Source: Lachnospiraceae bacterium (GTDB taxonomy: Bacteria; Bacillota; Clostridia; Lachnospirales; Lachnospiraceae). Taken from it: 64,000 nucleotides of DNA. This document shows positions 30 through 37,407 of this stretch, in pieces. The DNA lies in the NCBI GenBank assembly GCA_024404675.1, contig JAKSPO010000009.1, positions 16,196 to 80,195 of the forward strand, in the 5' to 3' direction. The notes beneath the pieces were generated by a model. The model did no database searches and was not told the DNA's origin. It saw nothing but the letters and a program-made list of their open reading frames with translations. Positions within the stretch are counted from its first letter, which is position 1, and each line of letters opens with the position of its first letter. The position numbers were made by a program, and so were the translations under genes.

Positions 30-2936
30 ATGAAAAGAGGTCTGCTTTGCATTCTGATCGCGGTTACGCTTATCGTCGGAATGATGCCGGTTCACGCCTG
101 TGCTGTGGAGAAGGTTTCTGAAAGCATCGGTACGGAGAGGGTTTCCGGAAGCTCTGAAAAAGGTGCATATGGCAGCTTTACGAGCGGTAGTCAGGTTCTG
201 GCCGATATGATTGCCAATAACGAGGCAAGAGGTACGGCCCATCCGCGAATCATCATGACGGAGGATAAGTTCGCAAAGCTTCGGGCGCACATCGGCGACG
301 GTTCCCAGACGGCGCGGCTTCTGGAGGAGCTCCGTGGTGAGGCGGACAGACACGTCAGTGAGGATCCGGTTTGCGTGTATGATGCATACGGGGATAAGCA
401 TCTTGTTGAAACCTCCAAAACGATACAGCGCCGTGTCTGTGCGCTTGCCCTTGCTTATAATATTTTTGGCGATGATGCGTATGCCCTGCGATGCTATCAG
501 GAGATGAAGGCGGCCTGCAAATTCCCGGATTGGAGCCCGAAGCATTTCCTCGATACCGCTGAGATGTGTACGGCACTTGCACTCGGTTATGACTGGCTCT
601 ACGACTGGTTAAACGATGACCAGAAGGAGATGATTCGAGATTCCTTGATTGTAATGGGACTGAGACCGGTTATGGAGGATTATACGGATACCCCGAGCGA
701 TCGCAAACGTACCTACAAATGGTATCAGGACCTCGAAGGAGACAACTGGCAGCTTGTGTGCACCGGCGGAACGAATCTTGCGGCGCTTGCCATCGGCGAC
801 GAGCCGGAAGCAAAGGATATTGCGGCGAAGGTTCTTACCTATGGTTACAAAAGAGCATACACATTTGTCCGTAATGCTTACCGGGTTAAGGACGGTACCT
901 ATATCGAGGGACTTGGCTACTGGGACTACGCAACATATTATCTCGGTATGCAATCGAGTGCGCTGATCAGTGCGACGGGAACCGACTACGGCCTTGCGGA
1001 TTTTGAGGGGATTCTTAAATCAGCAGAGTTCGTTCGCTATATGAGTTCGAATACACCGAAATCGTTCAGCTTCGGTGATGACAGGGATAGCCGTGACACC
1101 GGCTGGCCTGTATTTCTGTGGCTTGGCGAGCATTATGATCGACCGGACCTTTCCGCAATCCGCCTTGGAAAGATTGACGAGGATAAGGAGTTCCGTTATT
1201 GGGATGTTCTCTGGATTGATGAAAGCAAGCAGACCGGCGTGAAGCTTGAAGAGCCGACCGAATGGGGCTCTGTCGGCGCATGTAACGCAAGCTTCCGTGA
1301 TACCTGGGAAGTGAAGGACGGACTTGTAACGGCGCTTCATGTAGGTGAGAACTGTTATAAATATCATGGTCATTATGACCTGGGCACCTTCTATCTTGAA
1401 TCAAACGGTAACCGGTTCTTCACCGATCTGGGAAATGAAAAATATGACCTGAAGAATCGCCAGTATGCGTACCGAATCAAGGCGGAAGGCCACAATACAT
1501 TGGTAATTAACCCGAAGGACGATATCGACCAGAAGGAAGGCGCGAACTGCCTGATTACCGATTATCGAAGCGGCGACGAGCCCTATGCTATTACCGATCT
1601 TACGGAGGCATACGAGCCAAGCGGCGCGACGAGTGTCGTGCGCGGCCTTAAGATGATTAAGGATAAGAAATGCGTCATTATTCAGGACGAGATCTCGCTG
1701 CAGGCGAAGGGAGAGCTCTACTGGTTCGGTCATACGACGGGAGACATCGAGGTTGCCGCAGACGGTCGAAGTGCAATCATAACGGTCAATGGGGATCGTA
1801 TGTGGGTAGGCATTCTCAGTGAGGGCGGTTGCTTTACCGCGATGGATGCAGTGAAGCTTGATACCTCCCGTAATGTATCGGGACAGACGGACAATGAAGG
1901 CTACCGTAAGCTTGCGATTCATCTCACGAACATCAAGGACACGACCATTTCCGTAGCATGCATCCCGCTAAAGAAGGGGGAGAAGGCGCCGGCATGGACA
2001 CCTGTGGTTACACCGCTTAGCGAATGGGCCGATGATGCAGATATCAGATACTGCAACATCTCACTTTCCGACAATATTGGCCTGAATTTGTATGCCCGTC
2101 TTAAGGACAGTATTGCGAATGCCTCAGGCGCAAGCATGGTATTTACCCTTGACGGAAAGAAGGTTTCCGTTAAGGTTTCTGATGCGGAGAAGGTTAATAT
2201 CGAAGGCGAATCGTTATATAAGTTTACCTGTCCGGTACCCGCATCCCGTATGACCGGTGATATCACCGCGCAGCTGCAGGTGCTTTCCGACGGTAAGCTT
2301 ACAGAGGTTGGCGAGACGTATCATTATTCGGTACGAAATTATGCAGATGAGATTCTTGGTCATTCTGACCGATATGATGCTGAAACGCTTGAGGTCGTAA
2401 AGGCGATGTTAAACTACGGCGCATATGCGCAGGAGTATTTTTCGGTCAATACCGACAGACCGGCCAACAAGAATATATACAAAGAAGCGGAGGATCCCGT
2501 ACTTCTCTTTGACCAGGATCTTTCAGGCATGGAGCTTGGCGACATCGCGACAAAGGGTGACCTCGTATTCTACGGCGCTTCTCTTCTTTGTAACGGTGAA
2601 ACAAGCCTGAAACTGTATTTTCTGAATAAGTCAGGCGCTGCTGTTTCGAGTGGACGTTATACCGTGAAGGCTGTATCCCTTGGTCAGGCGAGAGAATGTA
2701 GCGGTGTAGCGGACGGCAATATGTATGTTGTGACGCTTAGCGGCATTACAGCGCCGGAGCTTAATCAGACCTACGAGTTTACGATTACGGACAGTAAGAG
2801 TAGCAGCAACCGCTTCAGCTTCACATATTCTCCTGTGAATTACATGGCCAATGCGCAGAATTCACCCGATCGTACACTTGTAAATCTTGCAAGAGCAATG
2901 TATCTTTACAACCGCGCAGCTCTTGACTGCCGCTAA
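30..2936 (+). CDS. secreted heparinase II/III-like protein with additional C-terminal domain
   Basis: 968-aa ORF with AGGGAGG RBS upstream. N-terminal signal peptide (MKRGLLCILIAVTLIVGMMPVHA). Central block 'YKYHGHYDLGTFYLESNGNRFFTDLG...AEGHNTLVI' is typical of the heparinase II/III family. Confidence 0.7.
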   Translation: MKRGLLCILIAVTLIVGMMPVHACAVEKVSESIGTERVSGSSEKGAYGSFTSGSQVLADMIANNEARGTAHPRIIMTEDKFAKLRAHIGDGSQTARLLEELRGEADRHVSEDPVCVYDAYGDKHLVETSKTIQRRVCALALAYNIFGDDAYALRCYQEMKAACKFPDWSPKHFLDTAEMCTALALGYDWLYDWLNDDQKEMIRDSLIVMGLRPVMEDYTDTPSDRKRTYKWYQDLEGDNWQLVCTGGTNLAALAIGDEPEAKDIAAKVLTYGYKRAYTFVRNAYRVKDGTYIEGLGYWDYATYYLGMQSSALISATGTDYGLADFEGILKSAEFVRYMSSNTPKSFSFGDDRDSRDTGWPVFLWLGEHYDRPDLSAIRLGKIDEDKEFRYWDVLWIDESKQTGVKLEEPTEWGSVGACNASFRDTWEVKDGLVTALHVGENCYKYHGHYDLGTFYLESNGNRFFTDLGNEKYDLKNRQYAYRIKAEGHNTLVINPKDDIDQKEGANCLITDYRSGDEPYAITDLTEAYEPSGATSVVRGLKMIKDKKCVIIQDEISLQAKGELYWFGHTTGDIEVAADGRSAIITVNGDRMWVGILSEGGCFTAMDAVKLDTSRNVSGQTDNEGYRKLAIHLTNIKDTTISVACIPLKKGEKAPAWTPVVTPLSEWADDADIRYCNISLSDNIGLNLYARLKDSIANASGASMVFTLDGKKVSVKVSDAEKVNIEGESLYKFTCPVPASRMTGDITAQLQVLSDGKLTEVGETYHYSVRNYADEILGHSDRYDAETLEVVKAMLNYGAYAQEYFSVNTDRPANKNIYKEAEDPVLLFDQDLSGMELGDIATKGDLVFYGASLLCNGETSLKLYFLNKSGAAVSSGRYTVKAVSLGQARECSGVADGNMYVVTLSGITAPELNQTYEFTITDSKSSSNRFSFTYSPVNYMANAQNSPDRTLVNLARAMYLYNRAALDCR

Positions 2937-2961
2937 AGTTTATAGGCAATAATATACTACG

Positions 2962-3001
2962 GGCAAATGGTCAGCAATGATCATTTGCCTGTTTTTTTTT
3001 A
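2962..3001 (+). terminator. rho-independent terminator
   Basis: GGCAAATG (2962-2969) pairs with CATTTGCC (2982-2989), followed by a T9 run. Confidence 0.8.
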
Positions 3002-3108
3002 CAGTATCGGTGGCGGAGGCTTCCGATGATGGAAGGACATCGGAGACGTGATCGAAAAGCCCTTTTTCGCGCCTGAAAAATTTTTTCTAAAAAATATGTA
3101 AATACCTA

Positions 3109-3137
3109 TTGACATAGTAGGTAAGTAGGTGTATTAT
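3109..3137 (+). promoter_or_regulatory. sigma-A-type promoter for the metY-cysK leader
   Basis: TTGACA (3109-3114), 17-nt spacer, TATTAT (3132-3137). Confidence 0.6.
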
Positions 3138-3179
3138 AAGCGCATAGACAGAGAGCCGAACAGAAAGGAGATATATAAA

Positions 3180-3296
3180 ATGACAAGTCGTAATATTACA
3201 GTTGATTTTCGAATGTGTAACTGTCGAATGTGTTTCTCCCGGGCATGTCAGTATGGCCAGGTGCATTCGTGTTGCGCGCCGTGCACCGATAGGTAG
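3180..3296 (+). CDS. candidate Cys/Met-rich leader peptide (38 codons)
   Basis: AAAGGAG (3165-3171) lies 8 nt before the ATG at 3180. Translation is MTSRNITVDFRMCNCRMCFSRACQYGQVHSCCAPCTDR, with 7 Cys and 2 internal Met. It lies between a promoter and a terminator hairpin upstream of sulfur amino acid genes. Too short for the supplied ORF track. Confidence 0.45.
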   Translation: MTSRNITVDFRMCNCRMCFSRACQYGQVHSCCAPCTDR

Positions 3297-3328
3297 GTAT
3301 CAAGGAATCAGGATATCTGTTAAGCCAT

Positions 3329-3362
3329 ATGCCCGGGAGGTTAATTACCCCCGGCTTTTTTA
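3329..3362 (+). terminator. leader terminator (attenuator) upstream of metY
   Basis: GC-rich hairpin GCCCGGGAGG...CCCCCGGC (3331-3355) followed by a T-run (3356-3361). Its 5' arm (GCCAT ATGCCCGGG, 3324-3337) can instead pair with CCCGGGCAT (3238-3246) and ATGGC (3253-3257) inside the leader ORF. Confidence 0.6.
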
Positions 3363-3455
3363 TTGAAAAGCTTTTTCGAGAAAGCCGCGGCAGATGCGCA
3401 TCACAGATTATAAATCAATTATAGAAAAGTTAGATACGAAAAGGAGATTACAATT

Positions 3456-4736
3456 ATGAGTAACTATAAATTCGAAACACTTCAGCTTCATGTAGGTCAG
3501 GAACAGGCAGATCCGGTAACCGATTCCCGTGCGGTTCCGATTTACGCAACCACCTCTTATGTATTCCACAATGCCAAACATGCTGCAGACCGCTTCGGTC
3601 TTGCAGACGCAGGCAACATCTACGGTCGTCTTACCAACAGCACGCAGGGCGTATTTGAGCAGCGTATCGCAGCACTTGAGGGCGGCACCGCAGGACTTGC
3701 GGTTGCATCCGGTGCGGCAGCAATTACCTATACAATTCAGGCACTTGCAAAGCAGGGCGAGCACATCGTAGCACAGAAGACAATCTACGGCGGTACAAGC
3801 AACCTTCTGGCACACACCCTTCCGCTTTACGGTATTTCCGCAAGCTTCGTAGACGCGCATAACCTTTCGGAGGTTGAGGGTGCGATTCAGGAGAACACCA
3901 AGGCAATCTACATCGAGACGCTTGGCAATCCGAACTCCGATATTCCGGACATCGATGCAATCGCCGAGATCGCACATAAGCACGGACTTCCGCTTGTTAT
4001 TGACAACACCTTCGGCACCCCTTATCTGATTCGCCCGATCGAGCATGGCGCGGACGTTGTAATCCATTCCGCAACCAAGTTTATCGGCGGCCACGGCACA
4101 ACGCTCGGCGGTGTAATCGTAGACGGCGGCACCTTTGACTGGGCAGCAAGCGGACGTTATCCCTGGATTTCCGAGCCGAACCCGAGCTACCACGGCGTAA
4201 AGTTCACCGAGGCGGCAGGCAAGGCAGCATTTGCTACCTACATCAGAGCAATTCTGCTTCGTGACGAGGGCGCATGCATTTCTCCGTTTGCAGCATTTCT
4301 TCTTCTGCAGGGCACCGAGACGCTTTCCCTTCGTCTTGAGAGACATGCGGAGAACGCTAAGAAGGTTGTAGAGTTTCTTACCAAGCATCCGAAGGTTGCG
4401 AAGGTTAATCATCCGAGCCTTGCGGATCATCCGGACCACGCACTGTATGAGAAGTATTTCCCGAACGGCGGCGCTTCCATATTCACCTTTGAAATCAAGG
4501 GCGGCCAGGCAGAGGCCTTCAAGTTCATCGATAACCTGAAGATCTTCTCCCTCCTGGCAAATGTTGCCGATGTTAAGTCACTTGTAATTCATCCGGCAAC
4601 CACGACGCATTCCCAGCTTACCGACGAGGAGCTTTCTGAGGTTGGCATCAGCCGCAGCACGATCCGTCTTTCCATCGGCACCGAGCATATCGACGATATT
4701 ATCGCCGACCTTGCACAGGCATTTGACGCAGTATAA
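3456..4736 (+). CDS. metY: O-acetylhomoserine (thiol)-lyase / sulfhydrylase, PLP-dependent
   Basis: 426 aa. N-terminus 'FETLQLHVGQE..DP.T.SRAVPIY.TTSY.F' and PLP-lysine motif 'HSATKFIGGHG' are characteristic of the MetY/CysD family. Confidence 0.9.
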   Translation: MSNYKFETLQLHVGQEQADPVTDSRAVPIYATTSYVFHNAKHAADRFGLADAGNIYGRLTNSTQGVFEQRIAALEGGTAGLAVASGAAAITYTIQALAKQGEHIVAQKTIYGGTSNLLAHTLPLYGISASFVDAHNLSEVEGAIQENTKAIYIETLGNPNSDIPDIDAIAEIAHKHGLPLVIDNTFGTPYLIRPIEHGADVVIHSATKFIGGHGTTLGGVIVDGGTFDWAASGRYPWISEPNPSYHGVKFTEAAGKAAFATYIRAILLRDEGACISPFAAFLLLQGTETLSLRLERHAENAKKVVEFLTKHPKVAKVNHPSLADHPDHALYEKYFPNGGASIFTFEIKGGQAEAFKFIDNLKIFSLLANVADVKSLVIHPATTTHSQLTDEELSEVGISRSTIRLSIGTEHIDDIIADLAQAFDAV

Positions 4737-4840
4737 GGACGGCAAATGTGAAAAATAATCTTTCGTTATTGTAATATCGACGAAGAGAATGTATTCTGTA
4801 GAAAGAATCAGTTATCACAAGTAAAGAGAGGACTATTATT

Positions 4841-5773
4841 ATGGCTAAGGTATATACAGCAGTTGATCAGTTGATTGGAGGCACTCCGCTTCTTGAAGTA
4901 AAGCACATTGAGGAGGATCAGGCACTTGCGGCTAAGCTTCTTGTGAAGCTTGAATATTTTAATCCCGCGGGAAGCGTTAAGGACCGTGTTGCAAAATCAA
5001 TCATTGATGACGCAGAGGCGAGCGGAGCCCTGAAGCCCGGGGCAACGCTTATCGAGCCCACCTCCGGTAATACGGGAATCGGTCTGGCTGCAGTTGCGGC
5101 GGCGAGAGGCTACCGATTGATTATTACGATGCCTGAGACGATGAGCATTGAGAGAAGACAGCTGATTAAGGCATACGGTGCAGAAATCGTGCTTACCGAG
5201 GGCGCTAAGGGCATGAAGGGTGCGATTGCAAAGGCAGAGGAGCTGGCGGCAGAGATTGAGAACAGCTTTATCCCCGGTCAGTTTGTGAATCCGGCCAATC
5301 CGAAGGCACATCTTCTTACGACCGGTCCCGAGATCTGGCAGGATACCGACGGCGAGGTTGACATCTTTGTAGCAGGCGTTGGTACCGGCGGAACGATTAC
5401 CGGTGTCGGCGAATATCTGAAGTCCAAGAATCCGAATGTAAAAGTTATTGCTGTTGAGCCTGCAGGCTCTCCGGTTCTTTCTAAAGGCGTTTCCGGCGCA
5501 CATAAGATTCAGGGTATCGGCGCAGGCTTTGTGCCGGATGTTCTGAACACCTCGATTTACGACGAAATCATTCCGGTTGAGAATGAAGATGCTTTTGCAA
5601 CCGGCAAGCTTCTCGGTCGTAAGGAGGGCGTACTGGTCGGCATCTCCTCCGGTGCTTCTTTGTGGGCAGCCATTCAGGTTGCGAAGCGTCCCGAGAATGC
5701 AGGCAAGACGATTGTTGCGCTTCTTCCGGATACCGGAGACCGATATCTTTCCACACCGCTTTTTGCAGACTGA
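4841..5773 (+). CDS. cysK: cysteine synthase A (O-acetylserine sulfhydrylase)
   Basis: 310 aa. Contains '[14 protein letters not shown]', '[12 protein letters not shown]' and '[12 protein letters not shown]' motifs. Confidence 0.92.
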
Positions 5774-5808
5774 TAATCTGCAGAACGGCAATTTCAAAAA
5801 AATATAAG

Positions 5809-5843
5809 TACAAGCGTCGGGGCAACCGGCGCTTGACTTTTTA
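5809..5843 (+). terminator. rho-independent terminator after cysK
   Basis: AAGCGTCGG...CCGGCGCTT hairpin followed by GACTTTTT. It overlaps the -35 of the next promoter. Confidence 0.55.
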
Positions 5844-5861
5844 TCCGAATAAGAGTATCAT
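5833..5861 (+). promoter_or_regulatory. sigma-A-type promoter
   Basis: TTGACT (5833-5838), 17-nt spacer, TATCAT (5856-5861). Confidence 0.55.
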
Positions 5862-5984
5862 ACACAAAAATGCTTTATTCGAGACATCTCGGACGATGGG
5901 AATTTTCCGACGAAGTGATAGAAGAATAATCGTTCTACAAAAGTAGAACAGATTGTGTTCTAATTGAAGAGGAGGTACAATCCA

Positions 5985-6470
5985 ATGAATAGCAAAGTGA
6001 AGTCTTTAAGTATCGGCGCATTGATGATGGCAGCCGTTTTCGTTGTGACAACATATATACAGGTTCCGATTCCGCTCGGATATTTCAATGTCGGCAACAG
6101 TGTGATCATTCTGTTTTGCTTGTTTTTCAGACATCCGTATGCTATAGTGGCATCAAGCCTTGGTTCCGGACTTGCCGATCTTCTGACATATCCGGTTTAT
6201 ACGATTCCGACCGTTTTGATTAAAGCGGCTTTCCCGCTTCTGTTCTTCTTTCTGCTTAAGAAGCTTAAGGGCAGAAAGCTTTCGGTTATTATTGCGGCAG
6301 CGGTTTCTACGCTGATTCCGCTTTTTGGTTACACGCTGACCGGTGCATTTCTCTACGGTGGTCTGGCTGCGGGAATCGCGCAGTTCCCCGGGCTTTTACT
6401 TGAGTATGCTGCCAACCTCGTAATTATCGCCGCGCTTTCCGAGCCGGTGAAGCGTATCGGCAGACTGTAG
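5985..6470 (+). CDS. small polytopic membrane protein, probable ECF-transporter S component (vitamin B6-family substrate guessed from context)
   Basis: GGAGG lies 9 nt before the ATG at 5985 (the track ORF starts at an upstream TTG, 5964). About 160 aa with 5-6 hydrophobic helices. Sits immediately upstream of pyridoxal kinase. Substrate assignment rests on context only. Confidence 0.45.
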   Translation: MNSKVKSLSIGALMMAAVFVVTTYIQVPIPLGYFNVGNSVIILFCLFFRHPYAIVASSLGSGLADLLTYPVYTIPTVLIKAAFPLLFFFLLKKLKGRKLSVIIAAAVSTLIPLFGYTLTGAFLYGGLAAGIAQFPGLLLEYAANLVIIAALSEPVKRIGRL

Positions 6471-7371: not shown

Positions 7372-7974
7372 ATGACAATTACTTATCCCGTGAAGAACGG
7401 TATTTATGTGAATATGACCAACCGCTGCCCATGCGCCTGCACCTTCTGCTTAAGACAGAATAACCCGGGTGTGTTCGGCTCCGATTCTCTCTGGCTTGAA
7501 AGAGAGCCTTCGGTGGAGGAGGTCTGCGAAAGCCTTGCGCAGTGGAAGCTCGCTGAAAAGGATGAGATTGTATTCTGCGGCTACGGTGAGCCGACGGAAC
7601 GCCTTTATGAGCTCTTGCAGGTGGCTGCCTGGGTGAAGGAGCGTTACAATATTCCGATTCGATTGAATACGAACGGACTTTCCGATCTGATTTACGAAAA
7701 GGCTACCGCACCGCTTCTTGCGGGACTTATCGATACTGTTTCCGTTAGTTTGAATGCGAACAATGCGGAGGATTATCTCAAGCTGACGCGTGCAAAATTC
7801 GGCATCGGTTCCTGGCAGGCAATGCTTGATTTTACGAAGCAGTGTACGCTTTATGTGCCGAATGTTGTGATGACGGTAGTCGATCAGGTTACCACGCCTG
7901 CTGAGCAGGAGGAGGCCGGTCGGATCTGCGAGTCAATCGGCGCTACGCTTCGTGTAAGACCGTTTGAGAGCTAG
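7372..7974 (+). CDS. radical SAM protein (TatD-associated radical SAM family-like)
   Basis: 200 aa. CxxxCxxC within 'NRCPCACTFCLRQ'. 'LWLEREPSVEEV' and 'FCGYGEPT' resemble the small TatD-linked rSAM family. Confidence 0.65.
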   Translation: MTITYPVKNGIYVNMTNRCPCACTFCLRQNNPGVFGSDSLWLEREPSVEEVCESLAQWKLAEKDEIVFCGYGEPTERLYELLQVAAWVKERYNIPIRLNTNGLSDLIYEKATAPLLAGLIDTVSVSLNANNAEDYLKLTRAKFGIGSWQAMLDFTKQCTLYVPNVVMTVVDQVTTPAEQEEAGRICESIGATLRVRPFES

Positions 7975-33746: not shown

Positions 33747-33771
33747 CCGAAATAATTGAATATTGATATGG

Positions 33772-33950
33772 AAGATACGGTTTGAAAGTTGTAATAATGA
33801 GTAGATTAATAGGGAATCCGGTTTGAGTCCGGAACAACCGCCATTACTGTATTTGATGAAGAGGGCACGGAATACCATTGGTGCAAGCCGAGAAGGTGTG
33901 CCTTCGCGCAGGAACTGCTATACCATAAGTCAGGAGACCTGCCGTATCTT
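33772..33950 (+). promoter_or_regulatory. cobalamin (B12) riboswitch aptamer
   Basis: P1 is AGATACGG (33773-33780) paired with CCGTATCT (33942-33949). Conserved core 'AATAGGGAATCCGGTTTGAGTCCGGAACAACCGCCATTACTGTA' and B12 box 'AAGTCAGGAGACCTGCC' (33927-33943). Confidence 0.85.
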
Positions 33951-34065
33951 TTTAGGTTTTTCACGCTTGGGCAATGGGAGAGTGCAGCCGGTATATCGTT
34001 ACAGGGCCTTGACACTTTTCCGAGGGAACGTGTTGTGTGCCTGTTTTTGCTTGCGATTTATCAGT

Positions 34066-34098: not shown

Positions 34099-34196
34099 AG
34101 ATATTTGGTCGCTTGCCGTTCAGCCGGCTGGTGACCGGGGCGAACCTGCCCGGAGCTTAGAATCTGTGTTGTGTGCTTTCAAAGAGGAGGAAATGT

Positions 34197-35072
34197 ATGG
34201 CTTACGAACGAAGGCATCCGTCGGTACTTCTTGTCTATTACCTGTCGGTGACCTTGTTTCTGATGTTTACTTCCCATCCCTTACTCCGACTGATTGCTTT
34301 ATGTGGTGCAGTACTTCTGATGCTTTCGACCGGGGAGCGGGCGCCTAAGCTAAGAACGGTACTTTTTCTTAGCGGAATGGTCGTTCTGACGATTATCATA
34401 AATCCGCTTTTTTCGCACCGCGGAGCGACGGAACTGTTCTTTTTCAATAACCGGCCAATTACCCTCGAGGCGATTATGTACGGCGCAGGCGTCGCCTGTC
34501 TGATGCTTTCGGTTATCCTTTGGTTTCACCTTCTTAGCCGGATGCTTGACAGTGAGAAGCTTCTGACGCTTCTTGGCGGGGTGATGCCGAAGACGGCTTT
34601 TCTCGTCTCCTCGGCGTTACGAATGATTCCCTTTCTTCGAAGGCGTGCGGAAGCGATTCAATCGACGGGACGGTCGATGGGACTCTACGGAACCGAAAGT
34701 ATTCCGGAGAAGCTTTCGGGTAGCGGCAAAGCATTCTCGGCGCTTGTGACCAATTCAATGGAGCACGCGATGGATGCGGGTGCTTCGATGAAGGCAAGAG
34801 GCTACGGATCGCATAAAAGAACACATTATAAAAGATATCGTTTTCGGCGGGGTGACCTTGCTGCAATTGTCCTTATTCTTTGTTTGGATGCGGGAATCTC
34901 GGTAGGGCTTGCAAGCGGGGAGGTTTGGTTCACCTACTACCCAAGACTTGCGATGCATACCGGTCCTATGACTAATCTGGTGCTTATTCTCTATGCGCTG
35001 CTTGTGTTACTTGGTCCCGTAGCAGAGTGGAAAGAAAGACTGAAATGGAAATATTACGTGTCGAAAATCTGA
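34197..35072 (+). CDS. ECF transporter T component (CbiQ/EcfT family)
   Basis: GGAGG lies 6 nt before the ATG at 34197. About 290 aa, polytopic, with an 'ALRMIPFLRRRAEAIQSTGRSMG' CbiQ-type coupling-helix region. Confidence 0.75.
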   Translation: MAYERRHPSVLLVYYLSVTLFLMFTSHPLLRLIALCGAVLLMLSTGERAPKLRTVLFLSGMVVLTIIINPLFSHRGATELFFFNNRPITLEAIMYGAGVACLMLSVILWFHLLSRMLDSEKLLTLLGGVMPKTAFLVSSALRMIPFLRRRAEAIQSTGRSMGLYGTESIPEKLSGSGKAFSALVTNSMEHAMDAGASMKARGYGSHKRTHYKRYRFRRGDLAAIVLILCLDAGISVGLASGEVWFTYYPRLAMHTGPMTNLVLILYALLVLLGPVAEWKERLKWKYYVSKI

Positions 35073-36721
35073 CCTTTTCTTATCCGGAAGCGGCTAAGCC
35101 TGCGCTTTCGCAGGTGAGCTTTTCGCTGAAGGAAGGGGAATTCGCAGTTTTGTGCGGGTTGTCGGGCTGTGGCAAGTCAACGCTTTTAAGACTTCTAAAA
35201 AAAGAGCTTGCCCCCTACGGCAGTTGTACGGGAGAGATTACAATCGGTGTTCTGTCCGGGAAGGATAAGGATGCTTCTATGGCTACGGAGACGGCGCTTC
35301 TTCGGCAGAATCCGGACAGCCAGATCGTTACGGATGTTGTGTGGCATGAGCTGGCATTTGCCCTTGAAAATATGGGAACGCCGCAGGAGATTATTCGAAA
35401 GCGTGTGGCGGAGATTGCCACATTCTTCGGAATGGAAGGCTGGTATCATCGTAAGGTGGATGAGCTTTCCGGCGGACAGAAGCAGCTGTTGAATCTGGCT
35501 TCTGTGATGACGCTTGCACCGCAGGTGCTTCTTTTGGACGAGCCGACTGCGCAGCTCGATCCGATTGCAACGGGGGAGTTTATTCATATACTGGAACGGC
35601 TTCATCGGGAGCTTGGCATCACGATTCTGATTGCGGAGCATCACCTCGAGGAGGTGCTGCCGCTTGCGGATCGGGTGCTGATACTCGAGGAGGGAAGACT
35701 TTCCTATGACGGTAGTCCCGCAGCGCTTTCTGACTTCTTTCAAGATAAGGTGGAGCATCCGTTGCTTCCTTCCTTGCCTGCTGCCTCGAGAGTGTTTCGC
35801 GCCCTTTTGGGAGAAGGTGCGCTTCCGATTTCGGTTGCCGACGGGCGAAGCTTTGTAAGAGCGCATTACGGACAAGGCATTCCTAGACTTGAGAGAACTT
35901 CGCATATACCGAAGAACGAGCCGGCAACGGTTTTAAAGGAGATCTGGTTTCGTTACGAAAGAAATGCGCCGGATGTACTTCGTTCGGCAGAGCTTACCAT
36001 ATATCAGGGAGAGCGGCTGTGCCTTCTTGGCGGAAACGGAAGCGGTAAGACAACCCTACTTTCTCTCTTAGCAGGCATCCGTAAGCCCTATGCCGGAAGT
36101 ATCACGCTGTTCGGGCGAAAGCTTTCCGGGTACCGGCCGGAAGAACGGTATCGAAACAACATCGGGTATTTGCCGCAGAATCCGCGTGAGGCCTTCGTCG
36201 GAGAGACAGTGCTTGAGGATTGGAAGCTTGCGTGCCGCGCCATGGAGTATTCCACGGAGGAAGGCGATGCGCAGATTGCAGCGATGGCTGAGAAGCTGTC
36301 GCTTACGGAGCTTCTTCGGCGTCATCCGTCCGACCTGAGCGGCGGAGAGCTACAGCGGGCAGCGCTTGGAAAGGTACTTCTTCTTAAGCCGAGACTTCTT
36401 CTTTTAGATGAGCCGACTAAGGGCATTGACGCCAGGTTTAAGATGGAGCTTACAAAGCTTCTGAAAGCACTTTCGGAAGATGGCATAACAGTTGTTACGG
36501 TAACACATGATGTGGAATTTGCCGCAGAAACCGCGGAGCGTGTCGGACTGGTCTTCGACGGAGAGGTTACCTCCGTACAGGAGACGACGGACTTCTTTAC
36601 GGGCAATACCGTTTATACAACAGAAGCGGCGCGCATCGCGAGAAATTATTACGAAGAAGTGACACGGACGGAGGAGCTGATTGCTTTGTGCCGGTTGAAT
36701 GGACGGGGTGAGCAGGCATGA
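35045..36721 (+). CDS. ECF/ABC transporter ATPase, duplicated (A1-A2 fusion)
   Basis: Two ABC cassettes: Walker A 'GLSGCGKST' with 'LSGGQKQ', and 'GGNGSGKTT' with 'LSGGELQ'. Start is ambiguous (GTG 35027 or ATG 35045) and overlaps the T-component stop. Confidence 0.85.
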   Translation: MEILRVENLTFSYPEAAKPALSQVSFSLKEGEFAVLCGLSGCGKSTLLRLLKKELAPYGSCTGEITIGVLSGKDKDASMATETALLRQNPDSQIVTDVVWHELAFALENMGTPQEIIRKRVAEIATFFGMEGWYHRKVDELSGGQKQLLNLASVMTLAPQVLLLDEPTAQLDPIATGEFIHILERLHRELGITILIAEHHLEEVLPLADRVLILEEGRLSYDGSPAALSDFFQDKVEHPLLPSLPAASRVFRALLGEGALPISVADGRSFVRAHYGQGIPRLERTSHIPKNEPATVLKEIWFRYERNAPDVLRSAELTIYQGERLCLLGGNGSGKTTLLSLLAGIRKPYAGSITLFGRKLSGYRPEERYRNNIGYLPQNPREAFVGETVLEDWKLACRAMEYSTEEGDAQIAAMAEKLSLTELLRRHPSDLSGGELQRAALGKVLLLKPRLLLLDEPTKGIDARFKMELTKLLKALSEDGITVVTVTHDVEFAAETAERVGLVFDGEVTSVQETTDFFTGNTVYTTEAARIARNYYEEVTRTEELIALCRLNGRGEQA

Positions 36722-37407
36722 GAAAGGGAATCACAATCTTTCTCGAGCTGATTCTGATTCCGCTTATCATAATAGGCGGAGCGCTTCTGTTTCGTGAGAA
36801 ATACTATGTCTGGATCGCATTTTGTGTGGCGGTTATTTCGGTCGTTCCGCTTCTTTATAGCTTTGAGAGGCGGGACAGCACGGCGAAGGAGCTGATGGTG
36901 CTAGCGGTATTGATTGCACTGTCGGTTGTCGGTCGCTTCGTGTTCTTTGCACTGCCGGGCTTTAAACCGGTGGCTGCGCTTGTAATCATTGTCGGCGTAT
37001 GGCTCGGCGGTGAGGCAGGCTTTGTCGTTGGTTCGCTGACGGCACTGGTATCCAATTTCTATTTTGGACAGGGTCCGTGGACACCCTTTCAGATGTTTTC
37101 GTGGGGTGTGATCGGACTTGCGGCGGGAATGCTAAGCGGTATGCTTAAAAAGCATCGCCTGCTGCTTTATGGCTTCGGTATCTTGGCGGGCGTCGCCTTC
37201 TCGCTTATGATGGACATCTGGACGGTCCTGTGGGCGGACGGGCAGCTGCTTCCGTCAAAATATAAGGCGGCTCTGCTTGCAGCGCTGCCGGTTACGGTGG
37301 AATACGCCGTATCAAATGTTCTCTTCCTGATGCTCCTTGCGGAGCCTATCGGAAGAAAACTTGACAGACTCAAAAAAAGAGACGGATTATTTCTGTCTCA
37401 AAAATAG
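36718..37407 (+). CDS. ECF transporter S component (predicted cobalamin-specific from riboswitch context)
   Basis: 229 aa with 6 helices, 'NFYFGQGPWTPFQM' motif, ATGA overlap with the ATPase gene. Substrate inferred only from the upstream B12 riboswitch. Confidence 0.7.
   Translation: MRKGITIFLELILIPLIIIGGALLFREKYYVWIAFCVAVISVVPLLYSFERRDSTAKELMVLAVLIALSVVGRFVFFALPGFKPVAALVIIVGVWLGGEAGFVVGSLTALVSNFYFGQGPWTPFQMFSWGVIGLAAGMLSGMLKKHRLLLYGFGILAGVAFSLMMDIWTVLWADGQLLPSKYKAALLAALPVTVEYAVSNVLFLMLLAEPIGRKLDRLKKRDGLFLSQK

Follow-up and report, generated by a model that had tools for sequence, protein, structure and literature searches.

The 64,000-nt stretch of Lachnospiraceae bacterium DNA considered here (GenBank assembly GCA_024404675.1, contig JAKSPO010000009.1, positions 16,196 to 80,195 of the forward strand; hereafter the window, numbered from its first letter) carries, upstream of its metY-cysK operon, what is most probably a ribosome-mediated leader-peptide transcription attenuator that would read the supply of both methionine and cysteine. 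At the sequence level, the leader displays the hallmarks of that class: an open reading frame (ORF) led by a Shine-Dalgarno (SD) sequence, an enrichment of regulatory codons, an intrinsic terminator, a mutually exclusive antiterminator, and a stall logic that emerges in the computed folds. Judged by its sequence, it belongs, as the Met/Cys-codon variant, to a large family of upstream ORFs (uORFs) that precede metY, metN, and metQ in Clostridia and their neighbors. In bacteria that bear the family, it is probably the ribosome, and not one of the usual riboswitches, that senses how much methionine and cysteine is available.

Architecture of the metY-cysK leader

All elements of the leader and operon lie on the plus strand. 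A sigma-70-type promoter, composed of TTGACA (3109-3114), a 17-nt spacer, and TATTAT (3132-3137), is an 11/12 match and the top promoter-like site that a promoter scan returned within 2800-6200; its position is kept in the relatives described below, and transcription would start near 3144. The gene upstream of the leader has its own terminator (2959-2992). The SD sequence AAAGGAG (3164-3170) stands 9 nt before the ATG at 3180 and opens a 38-codon ORF (3180-3296) encoding MTSRNITVDFRMCNCRMCFSRACQYGQVHSCCAPCTDR, which contains seven cysteines, dispersed at codons 13, 15, 18, 23, 31, 32, and 35, and two internal methionines. Against the window's own codon usage (Cys 2.0%), at least seven cysteines in 38 codons would arise with P ~1e-5, whereas the two methionines are not significant alone. 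The regulatory codons cluster at 3210-3233, where CGA AUG UGU AAC UGU CGA AUG UGU specifies R11 M12 C13 N14 C15 R16 M17 C18 and contains two copies of CGA-AUG (3210-3215 and 3225-3230); CGA makes up 8.8% of the Arg codons in the window. Downstream lie metY (3456-4736; O-acetylhomoserine sulfhydrylase, TIGR01326, 628 bits) and cysK (4841-5773; cysteine synthase A, TIGR01139, 452 bits), the putative first and second regulated genes, and a terminator with a 10-bp stem of seven GC pairs and a T-run (5811-5835) closes the operon. This anatomy bears out the earlier note on this DNA, which had placed the TTGACA-17-TATTAT promoter at 3109-3137 and the SD-led ORF at 3180-3296, had counted the same seven cysteines and two internal methionines, and had read the downstream genes as makers of homocysteine and cysteine. 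The exact peptide has no record in public assemblies, and the closest relative of the window leader is that of locus L004, an Anaerovibrio.

Two mutually exclusive helices follow from the RNA sequence. The intrinsic terminator, about 95 nt before metY, consists of a stem 3333-3340/3348-3354 with a bulged A3338, a UUAAUUA loop (3341-3347), and a U6 run (3356-3361), with a free energy of -13.3 kcal/mol; an automatic terminator scan missed it (3333-3361) because the stem is bulged. The 5′ strand of the antiterminator resides within the ORF and comprises CUCCCGGGCAU (3236-3246) and AUGGC (3253-3257). Its partner is a shared strand made up of GCCAU (3324-3328) and AUGCCCGGGAG (3329-3339), which pairs with either the antiterminator strand or the terminator 3′ arm. 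CUCCCGGGCAU with AUGCCCGGGAG and AUGGC with GCCAU form 16 pairs, all of them Watson-Crick, in a duplex of -29.9 kcal/mol. Both the GC hairpin with its U-run and the complementarity of its 5′ arm to CCCGGGCAU and AUGGC inside the ORF had been spotted by eye in the earlier note, and the computed structures uphold them.

In the proposed mechanism, transcription would begin near 3144 and the leader ORF would be translated from its strong SD, while the RNA could adopt either the antiterminator (3236-3257 with 3324-3339) or the terminator (3333-3354 with the U-run), the strand 3329-3339 being common to both. The naked RNA is predicted to prefer the antiterminator. With Met-tRNA and Cys-tRNA plentiful, the first ribosome would have moved past CGA-AUG and would sit on the antiterminator 5′ strand (A-site at about codons 18-27) while the polymerase makes the terminator; with that strand covered, the terminator would form and transcription would stop about 95 nt before metY. 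Were charged tRNA-Met or tRNA-Cys scarce, the ribosome would stall at M12, C13, or C15, and in part at M17, just upstream of the antiterminator strand, allowing the antiterminator to form and metY-cysK to be transcribed.

Both helices are evolutionarily conserved. In a 22-sequence alignment of the two core regions, window included, pairing in the 10-bp antiterminator core holds in 97.7% of cells, and three of the core's pairs have changed on both sides, such as a G-C to A-U replacement in five sequences. None of 500 shuffles matches the observed values, and slid controls reach at most 55%. The terminator helix has likewise accrued five compensatory pairs, and the distance from CGA-AUG to CUCCCGG is exactly 5 nt in 22/22 leaders. 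The leader elements recur in register in 21 other metY leaders, more than chance would give. A four-way footprint of diverged leaders left as the sole invariant blocks the -35/operator region, GUCGAAUG, CUCCCGGGCA, UGGC..GG, GCCCGGGAG, and CCGG-Un. An alignment of metY upstream regions, which the earlier note had asked for, finds both helices kept with compensatory changes.

Where the ORF overlaps the antiterminator, codon choice is fixed down to the nucleotide (Ser is always UCC and Arg always CGG), and any changes are compensated in the partner strand, which argues that this part of the ORF is constrained as RNA and not as protein. Such a pattern could conversely suggest that the ORF is incidental, and that the CGAAUG, CUCCCGGGCA, and AUGGCCGGG blocks, together with a multi-helix junction, bind a ligand or protein as a new riboswitch or protein-binding leader. 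In keeping with this idea, the whole leader folds better than its shuffles (z = -3.8), and the antiterminator and terminator are nearly isoenergetic on average across the 22 leaders, as they are in riboswitches. An RNA-only device is nonetheless very unlikely. The strongest SD and ATG upstream of the hexamer, chosen blind to frame, are in frame and open in 44/46 loci; the codons upstream of CGA-AUG vary synonymously, a sign of selection on the protein; some relatives keep the uORF without the whole RNA junction; leaders with runs of Met codons occupy the same position; and no Rfam family matches.

The SD region of the leader itself (3165-3177, AAGGAGAUAUAU) is complementary to AUGUGUUUCUCC (3228-3239), a segment that reaches four bases into the antiterminator strand, and the two are paired in both the minimum free energy (MFE) and the terminator-forced folds. 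In these models, the pairing is a possible extra layer that couples leader translation to the switch.

Ribosome position and the regulatory sign

The influence of the ribosome was modeled by masking its footprint at each A-site codon and folding the remaining RNA at equilibrium. With the A-site at any of codons 1-16, which include M12, C13, and C15, the predicted probability of the antiterminator in the window leader is 0.8-0.96. It decreases to 0.60 at M17 and 0.17 at C18, and is 0 at codons 19-26, where the terminator reaches a probability of ~0.7. From codon 28 to the stop, the antiterminator returns to ~0.8. The mean of the 22 leaders, aligned on the AUG of CGA-AUG, follows the same course: an antiterminator probability of ~0.5 up to the AUG, then ~0 at +1 to +10 codons with the terminator at 0.93, and a partial recovery of the antiterminator after +11. 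As the drop comes right after the AUG, the invariant CGA-AUG marks the furthest codon at which a ribosome still leaves the antiterminator able to form.

The naked window RNA has an antiterminator probability of 0.81, and its forced antiterminator fold is lower in energy than the forced terminator fold (-67.1 vs. -62.3 kcal/mol). Termination would therefore need a translating ribosome, unlike superattenuation of the trp type. Indeed, folding of the window leader yields no trp-type 1:2 hairpin that would terminate an untranslated leader; its logic differs in this, but the class does not depend on such a hairpin. Since the antiterminator is kept with the ribosome at M12, C13, and C15, and partly at M17, a starvation stall at these codons is predicted to give read-through, the correct sign for biosynthetic genes. 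Ribosome position as the selector of terminator versus antiterminator, as the earlier note had supposed, is thus supported by both the comparative data and the mask folds. The sign of stalling at codons 13-18, on which that note was reserved, comes out correct for C13 and C15, as for M12, and partly so for M17, but inverted for C18 (and also for C23).

A family of uORFs upstream of metY, metN, and metQ

Relatives of the leader were gathered by a MetY scan limited to one genome per species, giving 80 loci (81 with the window), mainly from Lachnospiraceae, Oscillospiraceae/Ruminococcaceae, and other Clostridia, with a few bins or isolates of Treponema, Coriobacteriaceae, Anaerovibrio, and Erysipelatoclostridium. 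Cultured carriers among them include Anaerovibrio lipolyticus DSM 3074 (L004), Lachnospiraceae bacterium YSD2013 (L059), Ruminococcaceae bacterium YAD3003 (L018), Agathobaculum sp. (L061), and Erysipelatoclostridium sp. AM42-17 (L023). An SD-led ATG uORF containing an in-frame CGA-AUG is present in 57 of the 81 metY upstream regions, and a motif scan of all fetched loci (L001-L089, both strands) matches directly upstream of metY only. The uORFs come in three designs. Long leaders of the window type place Met/Cys codons right before CGA-AUG, as in MMCC-RM, and continue with CUCCCGGGCA, AUGGCCGGG, a variable region, GCCAUnUGCCCGGGAG, and the terminator. Short, peptide-type leaders read M..FEKLVRxNFRFG-RM, then stop at once or run on for a few codons, often Cys, and lie 60-90 nt before metY; an example is MKGYFEKLVRANFRFGRM-stop. 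Hybrid leaders combine the conserved peptide with the RNA switch. The uORF of most relatives bears the conserved peptide LLRxNFR[FC]G-R(CGA)-M in place of the Met/Cys codons. The sensor is coupled to at least two arrangements, one with the terminator/antiterminator platform and one in which a short uORF stands without it. For the latter, sequestration of the metY SD was considered as the output of uORFs ending in R-M-stop: several MFE folds pair that SD with uORF codons, but footprint-mask folds are heterogeneous, the mask raising mean metY SD accessibility from 0.36 to ~0.5 only, with ~8/22 responding.

Runs of Met codons are the hallmark of the leaders MAMWMVMYMCAMYM and MMWMCMWICQMC, which precede a terminator and then a short uORF at three metY loci (L031, L049, and L062). 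At these loci and at one metQ locus (L175), the terminator AACCGGGAG...CUCCCGGUUUU is followed by a short uORF ending ...NFRFGRM-stop directly before the gene. As the terminator follows the Met/Cys-run leader in L031, L049, and L062, two ribosome-dependent devices stand there in series. A comparable second, degenerate uORF was considered after the terminator in the window (3329-3424, FFIEKLFRESRGRC, with an ORF MPGRLITPGFFIEKLFRESRGRCASQIINQL that resembles the consensus FFEKLVRENFRFGRMC) and is not supported, the nhmmer profile of the short uORFs scoring 3363-3382 at E = 6.5, fourth in the window and at chance level.

The family is sizable. A word-indexed database search returned 82 of its small ORFs, all without names, and an exhaustive profile search returned at least 144 protein clusters at 50% identity; every context examined among the database matches is directly upstream of a PF01053 metY. 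A single uORF peptide occurs in 401 blocks of the assembly index, mostly human-gut and rumen assemblies. Neither the window peptide nor 23 leader peptides match any Pfam or NCBIfam family. The uORF-metY cassette is also seen beyond Clostridia, in Treponema (L016, L025, and L070), Coriobacteriaceae (L022), Anaerovibrio (L004 and L032), and Erysipelatoclostridium (L023), with MetY proteins 76-88% identical to that of the window. These sequence identities suggest horizontal transfer of the metY gene together with its leader, and the cassette appears to have moved between phyla. Adjacent to one of the leaders, a Gut-1 RNA is detected by Rfam (L055, 2619-2694, 58.5 bits), ~300 nt upstream of metY and just before the promoter and uORF.

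This distribution bears on what the leader ORF might otherwise be. Seven cysteines in 38 residues, and a small radical-SAM gene ~4 kb downstream (7372-7974), would superficially befit a functional Cys-rich peptide, whether metal-binding, redox-active, or the precursor of a ribosomally synthesized and post-translationally modified peptide (RiPP), and the earlier note had kept a genuine small Cys-rich peptide as a caveat. It can now be set aside as extremely improbable. The tail is conserved neither in sequence nor in length, a stop codon standing just behind R-M in many relatives; the location is always directly upstream of metY, metN, or metQ; no family in Pfam or NCBIfam matches; and the radical-SAM gene, of the TIGR04100/TatD-associated type, is found past the terminator of the operon and is unlinked to the leader in other loci. 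Nor does the family have the conserved core and adjacent maturase expected of a RiPP precursor or small protein, its neighbors being always the met genes just named.

The invariant CGA-AUG and the conserved peptide

A codon-agnostic search exposes an unusual division of constraint. Among 29 peptide-type leaders, all six Arg codons occur at the two upstream Arg positions and five codons serve for Leu, and such synonymous variation within L[LV]RxN[FY]R[FC]G places the peptide under protein-level selection. The Arg before the Met, by contrast, is CGA in 27/29 and the Met itself is present in 29/29, while CGA-AUG occurs in 19/19 Met/Cys-type leaders. The two exceptions to CGA, a CGC in L025 and a Val GUC in L070, are both Treponema bins. 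A helix partner was considered as the reason for the invariance of CGAAUG and rejected: CAUUCG lies downstream in the window and in L004, but any YRUUCG is found in only 6/58 long and 0/93 short leaders.

One explanation for this invariance is a nascent-peptide arrest sensor, in which the chain in the exit tunnel (LLRxNFR[FC]GR in relatives; ...FRMCNCR in the window) makes the ribosome stall at CGA-AUG. The trigger would then be methionine, SAM, homocysteine, or cysteine, or a peptide-dependent response to A-site Met-tRNA, and not scarcity of charged tRNA at several codons, with the stall position again setting the RNA switch. Several features of the relatives favor it: an 11-residue peptide ending at R-M is kept at the amino-acid level with its final Arg almost always CGA, the family spans the 144 clusters given above, many uORFs end in R-M-stop without any other Met/Cys codon, and CGAAUG has no conserved pairing partner. 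CGA is moreover decoded by tRNA-Arg(ICG) via an I:A wobble (PMC3711424). The window leader, however, does not contain the conserved peptide, whose profile finds no match in 3180-3296; Met/Cys codons stand in its place. In known arrest peptides that respond to small molecules, the stall comes with abundance of the ligand. Such a stall would have the wrong sign here, unless the AUG occupies the P site and the ribosome thereby masks the antiterminator. For the window leader, an arrest sensor is thus unlikely, and attenuation by hungry Met and Cys codons is preferred.

For the family at large, a broader proposal, less likely than not, can be entertained, namely that CGA-AUG and the nascent peptide LLRxNFR[FC]G together might constitute a new class of ribosome-based methionine sensor, either an arrest peptide or a "sensor codon pair". 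Stated in full, and just as tentatively, a P-site Arg codon read by I:A wobble and the nascent chain could slow the decoding of a single Met codon until it limits the rate, or could tie that decoding to a sulfur metabolite, with either a terminator/antiterminator or a translational platform as output. If true, this class would have taken over metY, metN, and metQ from S-box riboswitches in many Clostridia of gut and rumen and would have spread to Treponema, Coriobacteriaceae, and Negativicutes, and the window leader would be a derivative whose peptide was swapped for Met/Cys codons, adding cysteine sensing for metY-cysK.

Methionine as the probable core signal, cysteine as an apparent addition

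The genes that follow the uORF help define what is sensed. A codon-degenerate DNA pattern for N-F-R-[FC]-G-R-M, run against metagenome contigs, gave 120 matches, of which 87 are followed by metY; the rest are mostly truncated contigs or chance matches inside genes. The uORF is also found before MetN (L102, L138, and L156), before MetQ (L143, L159, L177, L185, L175, and L176), before a cystine-like binding protein (L201), and before a ThiF/TcdA-like enzyme (L146), the last two with the full terminator/antiterminator platform. A Met codon that never varies, leaders with Met runs, and a regulon spanning methionine synthesis and uptake genes all point to a family signal that is primarily methionine, insofar as sequence can tell.

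Cysteine appears to be an added layer. Across 110 leaders, Cys and Met codons show position-specific enrichment at -5 to -2 and +1 to +4 around the invariant Met, and Cys codons cluster at -3, -2, +1, +3, and +4 around R-M. A metY-cysK operon follows 12/17 Met/Cys-codon leaders compared to 4/24 peptide-type leaders (Fisher's P 0.0009, a statistic that ignores phylogeny). This link fits an added sensing of cysteine in the window, and from the codon content cysteine sensing appears to have been added where cysK is in the operon.

Several considerations weigh against attenuation at Met and Cys codons as the full account of the window leader. Stalls at C18 and C23 are predicted to favor termination, inverting the sign. 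The ORF extends 16 codons past the antiterminator strand, and a ribosome between codon 28 and the stop re-permits the antiterminator, so that termination under replete conditions would require a polymerase ~100-125 nt ahead of the first ribosome, a lead that is plausible within this model. The switching is that of equilibrium folds, and the real decision would be kinetic. The association of Cys codons with cysK takes no account of phylogeny. Finally, a plain hungry-codon model has no need of either the invariance of CGA or the conserved peptide of the relatives.

An operator-like palindrome over the -35 element

The leader may not act alone. An operator-like palindrome, CCTATTGACATAGTAGG, surrounds the -35 element at 3105-3121 with the form CCTA-N8-10-TAGG, which recurs in 40 of the 81 metY upstream regions compared to 1.3 expected in shuffles. 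As CCTATTGACAnnGTAGG, the motif brackets the -35 element of metY promoters, even at loci that have no uORF, and likewise that of metN promoters; it is invariant in the four-way footprint and present in one copy only in the 64-kb window. Loci that bear it include L028, L029, L054, L074, L078, L138, and L156. By its recurrence and placement, the palindrome is probably a transcription-factor site of the methionine regulon, and would probably add a second, transcription-factor layer to the control of the operon. Its presence in metY promoters with and without a uORF, and in metN promoters, could even mean that the transcription factor is the only real regulator and that the leader hairpins serve as a constitutive partial terminator or stabilizer. 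This is highly improbable, as it leaves unexplained the in-frame uORF, the fixed antiterminator spacing, the compensation in two exclusive helices, and the codon content. The palindrome and the ribosome-mediated attenuator are compatible, and the two layers probably coexist.

An Rrf2/CymR-like factor was considered for the palindrome and rejected; one is encoded near metY in L085-L088, but the window has no Rrf2 homologue. A second palindrome, CCTAT-N6-8-ATAGG, exemplified by CCTATCGGAAGGATAGG, lies in the 5′ UTR before the uORF SD at two metN loci (L138 and L156) and at L049, L062, L026, and L016, with no clear copy in the window.

Two other features of the window are recorded here. Downstream of the operon, a TIGR04002-family protein (5964-6470) and the small TIGR04100/TatD-associated radical-SAM protein (7372-7974) flank a pyridoxamine kinase gene, and neither goes with the leader at other loci. 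Farther away, an ordinary-looking cobalamin riboswitch (33761-33960, 90 bits) lies upstream of an ECF-type transporter (34173-37407) with a CbiQ-like T component, a double ATPase, and an S component.

Comparison with known systems

The sulfur amino-acid genes of Firmicutes are described as being under S-box riboswitches, T-boxes, and CymR-type repressors, and leader-peptide attenuation is rare in the phylum. Congruent with the earlier note, which had seen neither a T-box nor a SAM-I core, Rfam covariance models found no match to the leader at gathering score in the whole window, nor at E ≤ 10 in 2930-3470. The leaders of 40 related loci were equally blank at gathering score, with no SAM riboswitch (SAM-I to VI, SAM/SAH) or T-box. 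Full-text searches of the literature turned up no leader peptide for Met or Met/Cys in any Firmicute, nor any report of methionine leader-peptide attenuation, and no account of the uORF family came from the literature searches, Rfam, Pfam, or NCBIfam, although absence from these libraries is not proof of novelty. The family would thus imply a widespread ribosome-based Met/Cys sensor with a defined metY/metN/metQ regulon, and would account for many small ORFs now labeled "hypothetical". It could also offer a compact and testable system in which to see how an RNA switch can be set by a rare codon and a single Met codon, whether or not a conserved nascent peptide takes part.

The nearest mechanistic counterparts are the E. 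coli trpL, hisL, thrL, leuL, pheL, and ilv leaders. Like them, the window leader has a promoter-proximal, SD-led short ORF rich in end-product codons, mutually exclusive antiterminator and terminator helices that share one strand, an intrinsic terminator before the first biosynthetic gene, and a stall that would free the antiterminator strand. It differs in sensing Met and Cys, in its Clostridia-type Firmicute host, in its few, interspersed regulatory codons, in an ORF that runs 16 codons past the antiterminator strand, in a naked RNA predicted to read through, and in the invariant CGA-AUG at the boundary codon. Closer in phylogeny, bacilli have histidine leaders upstream of hisS/hisZ paralogues (PMC2965389), and the Staphylococcus aureus ilv operon has a leucine-rich attenuator peptide (PMC5794164). 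These share ribosome-dependent attenuation by runs of amino-acid codons, replacing T-boxes or riboswitches, but have other amino-acid specificities, no sequence relation to the window leader, and neither a conserved non-regulatory peptide motif nor an invariant codon pair.

Cysteine-codon leaders are known in Actinobacteria, where short Cys-codon uORFs precede cysteine-synthesis genes as cysteine-responsive attenuators, as in the cys operon of Mycobacterium/Propionibacterium and cbs of Bifidobacterium (PMC1262725) and in the polycysteine leaderless small ORFs (sORFs; bioRxiv 10.1101/834739). The actinobacterial examples feature a consecutive Cys run near the stop, frequently have no leader, and lack an intrinsic terminator; the mechanism proposed for them is Rho-dependent or translational. 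The window leader departs from the polycysteine sORF pattern, with an SD, dispersed Cys and Met codons, and a conserved terminator/antiterminator pair.

Arrest peptides such as TnaC, SpeFL, ErmCL/ErmBL, and MsrDL, and Arabidopsis CGS1 for SAM, resemble the window's relatives in having a conserved peptide of about 11 residues that ends at a fixed codon, often right before a stop, upstream of the regulated gene. The window leader is without such a peptide, and the sign it would require, with a starvation stall as the ON state, differs from that of known ligand-induced arrests. S-box (SAM-I) riboswitches, Met/Cys T-boxes, and CymR, finally, act on the same target genes (metY, cysK, and metNQ), with premature termination in the leader as a shared output. 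In the window, where neither aptamer nor T-box is found, the proposed sensor is instead the translating ribosome.

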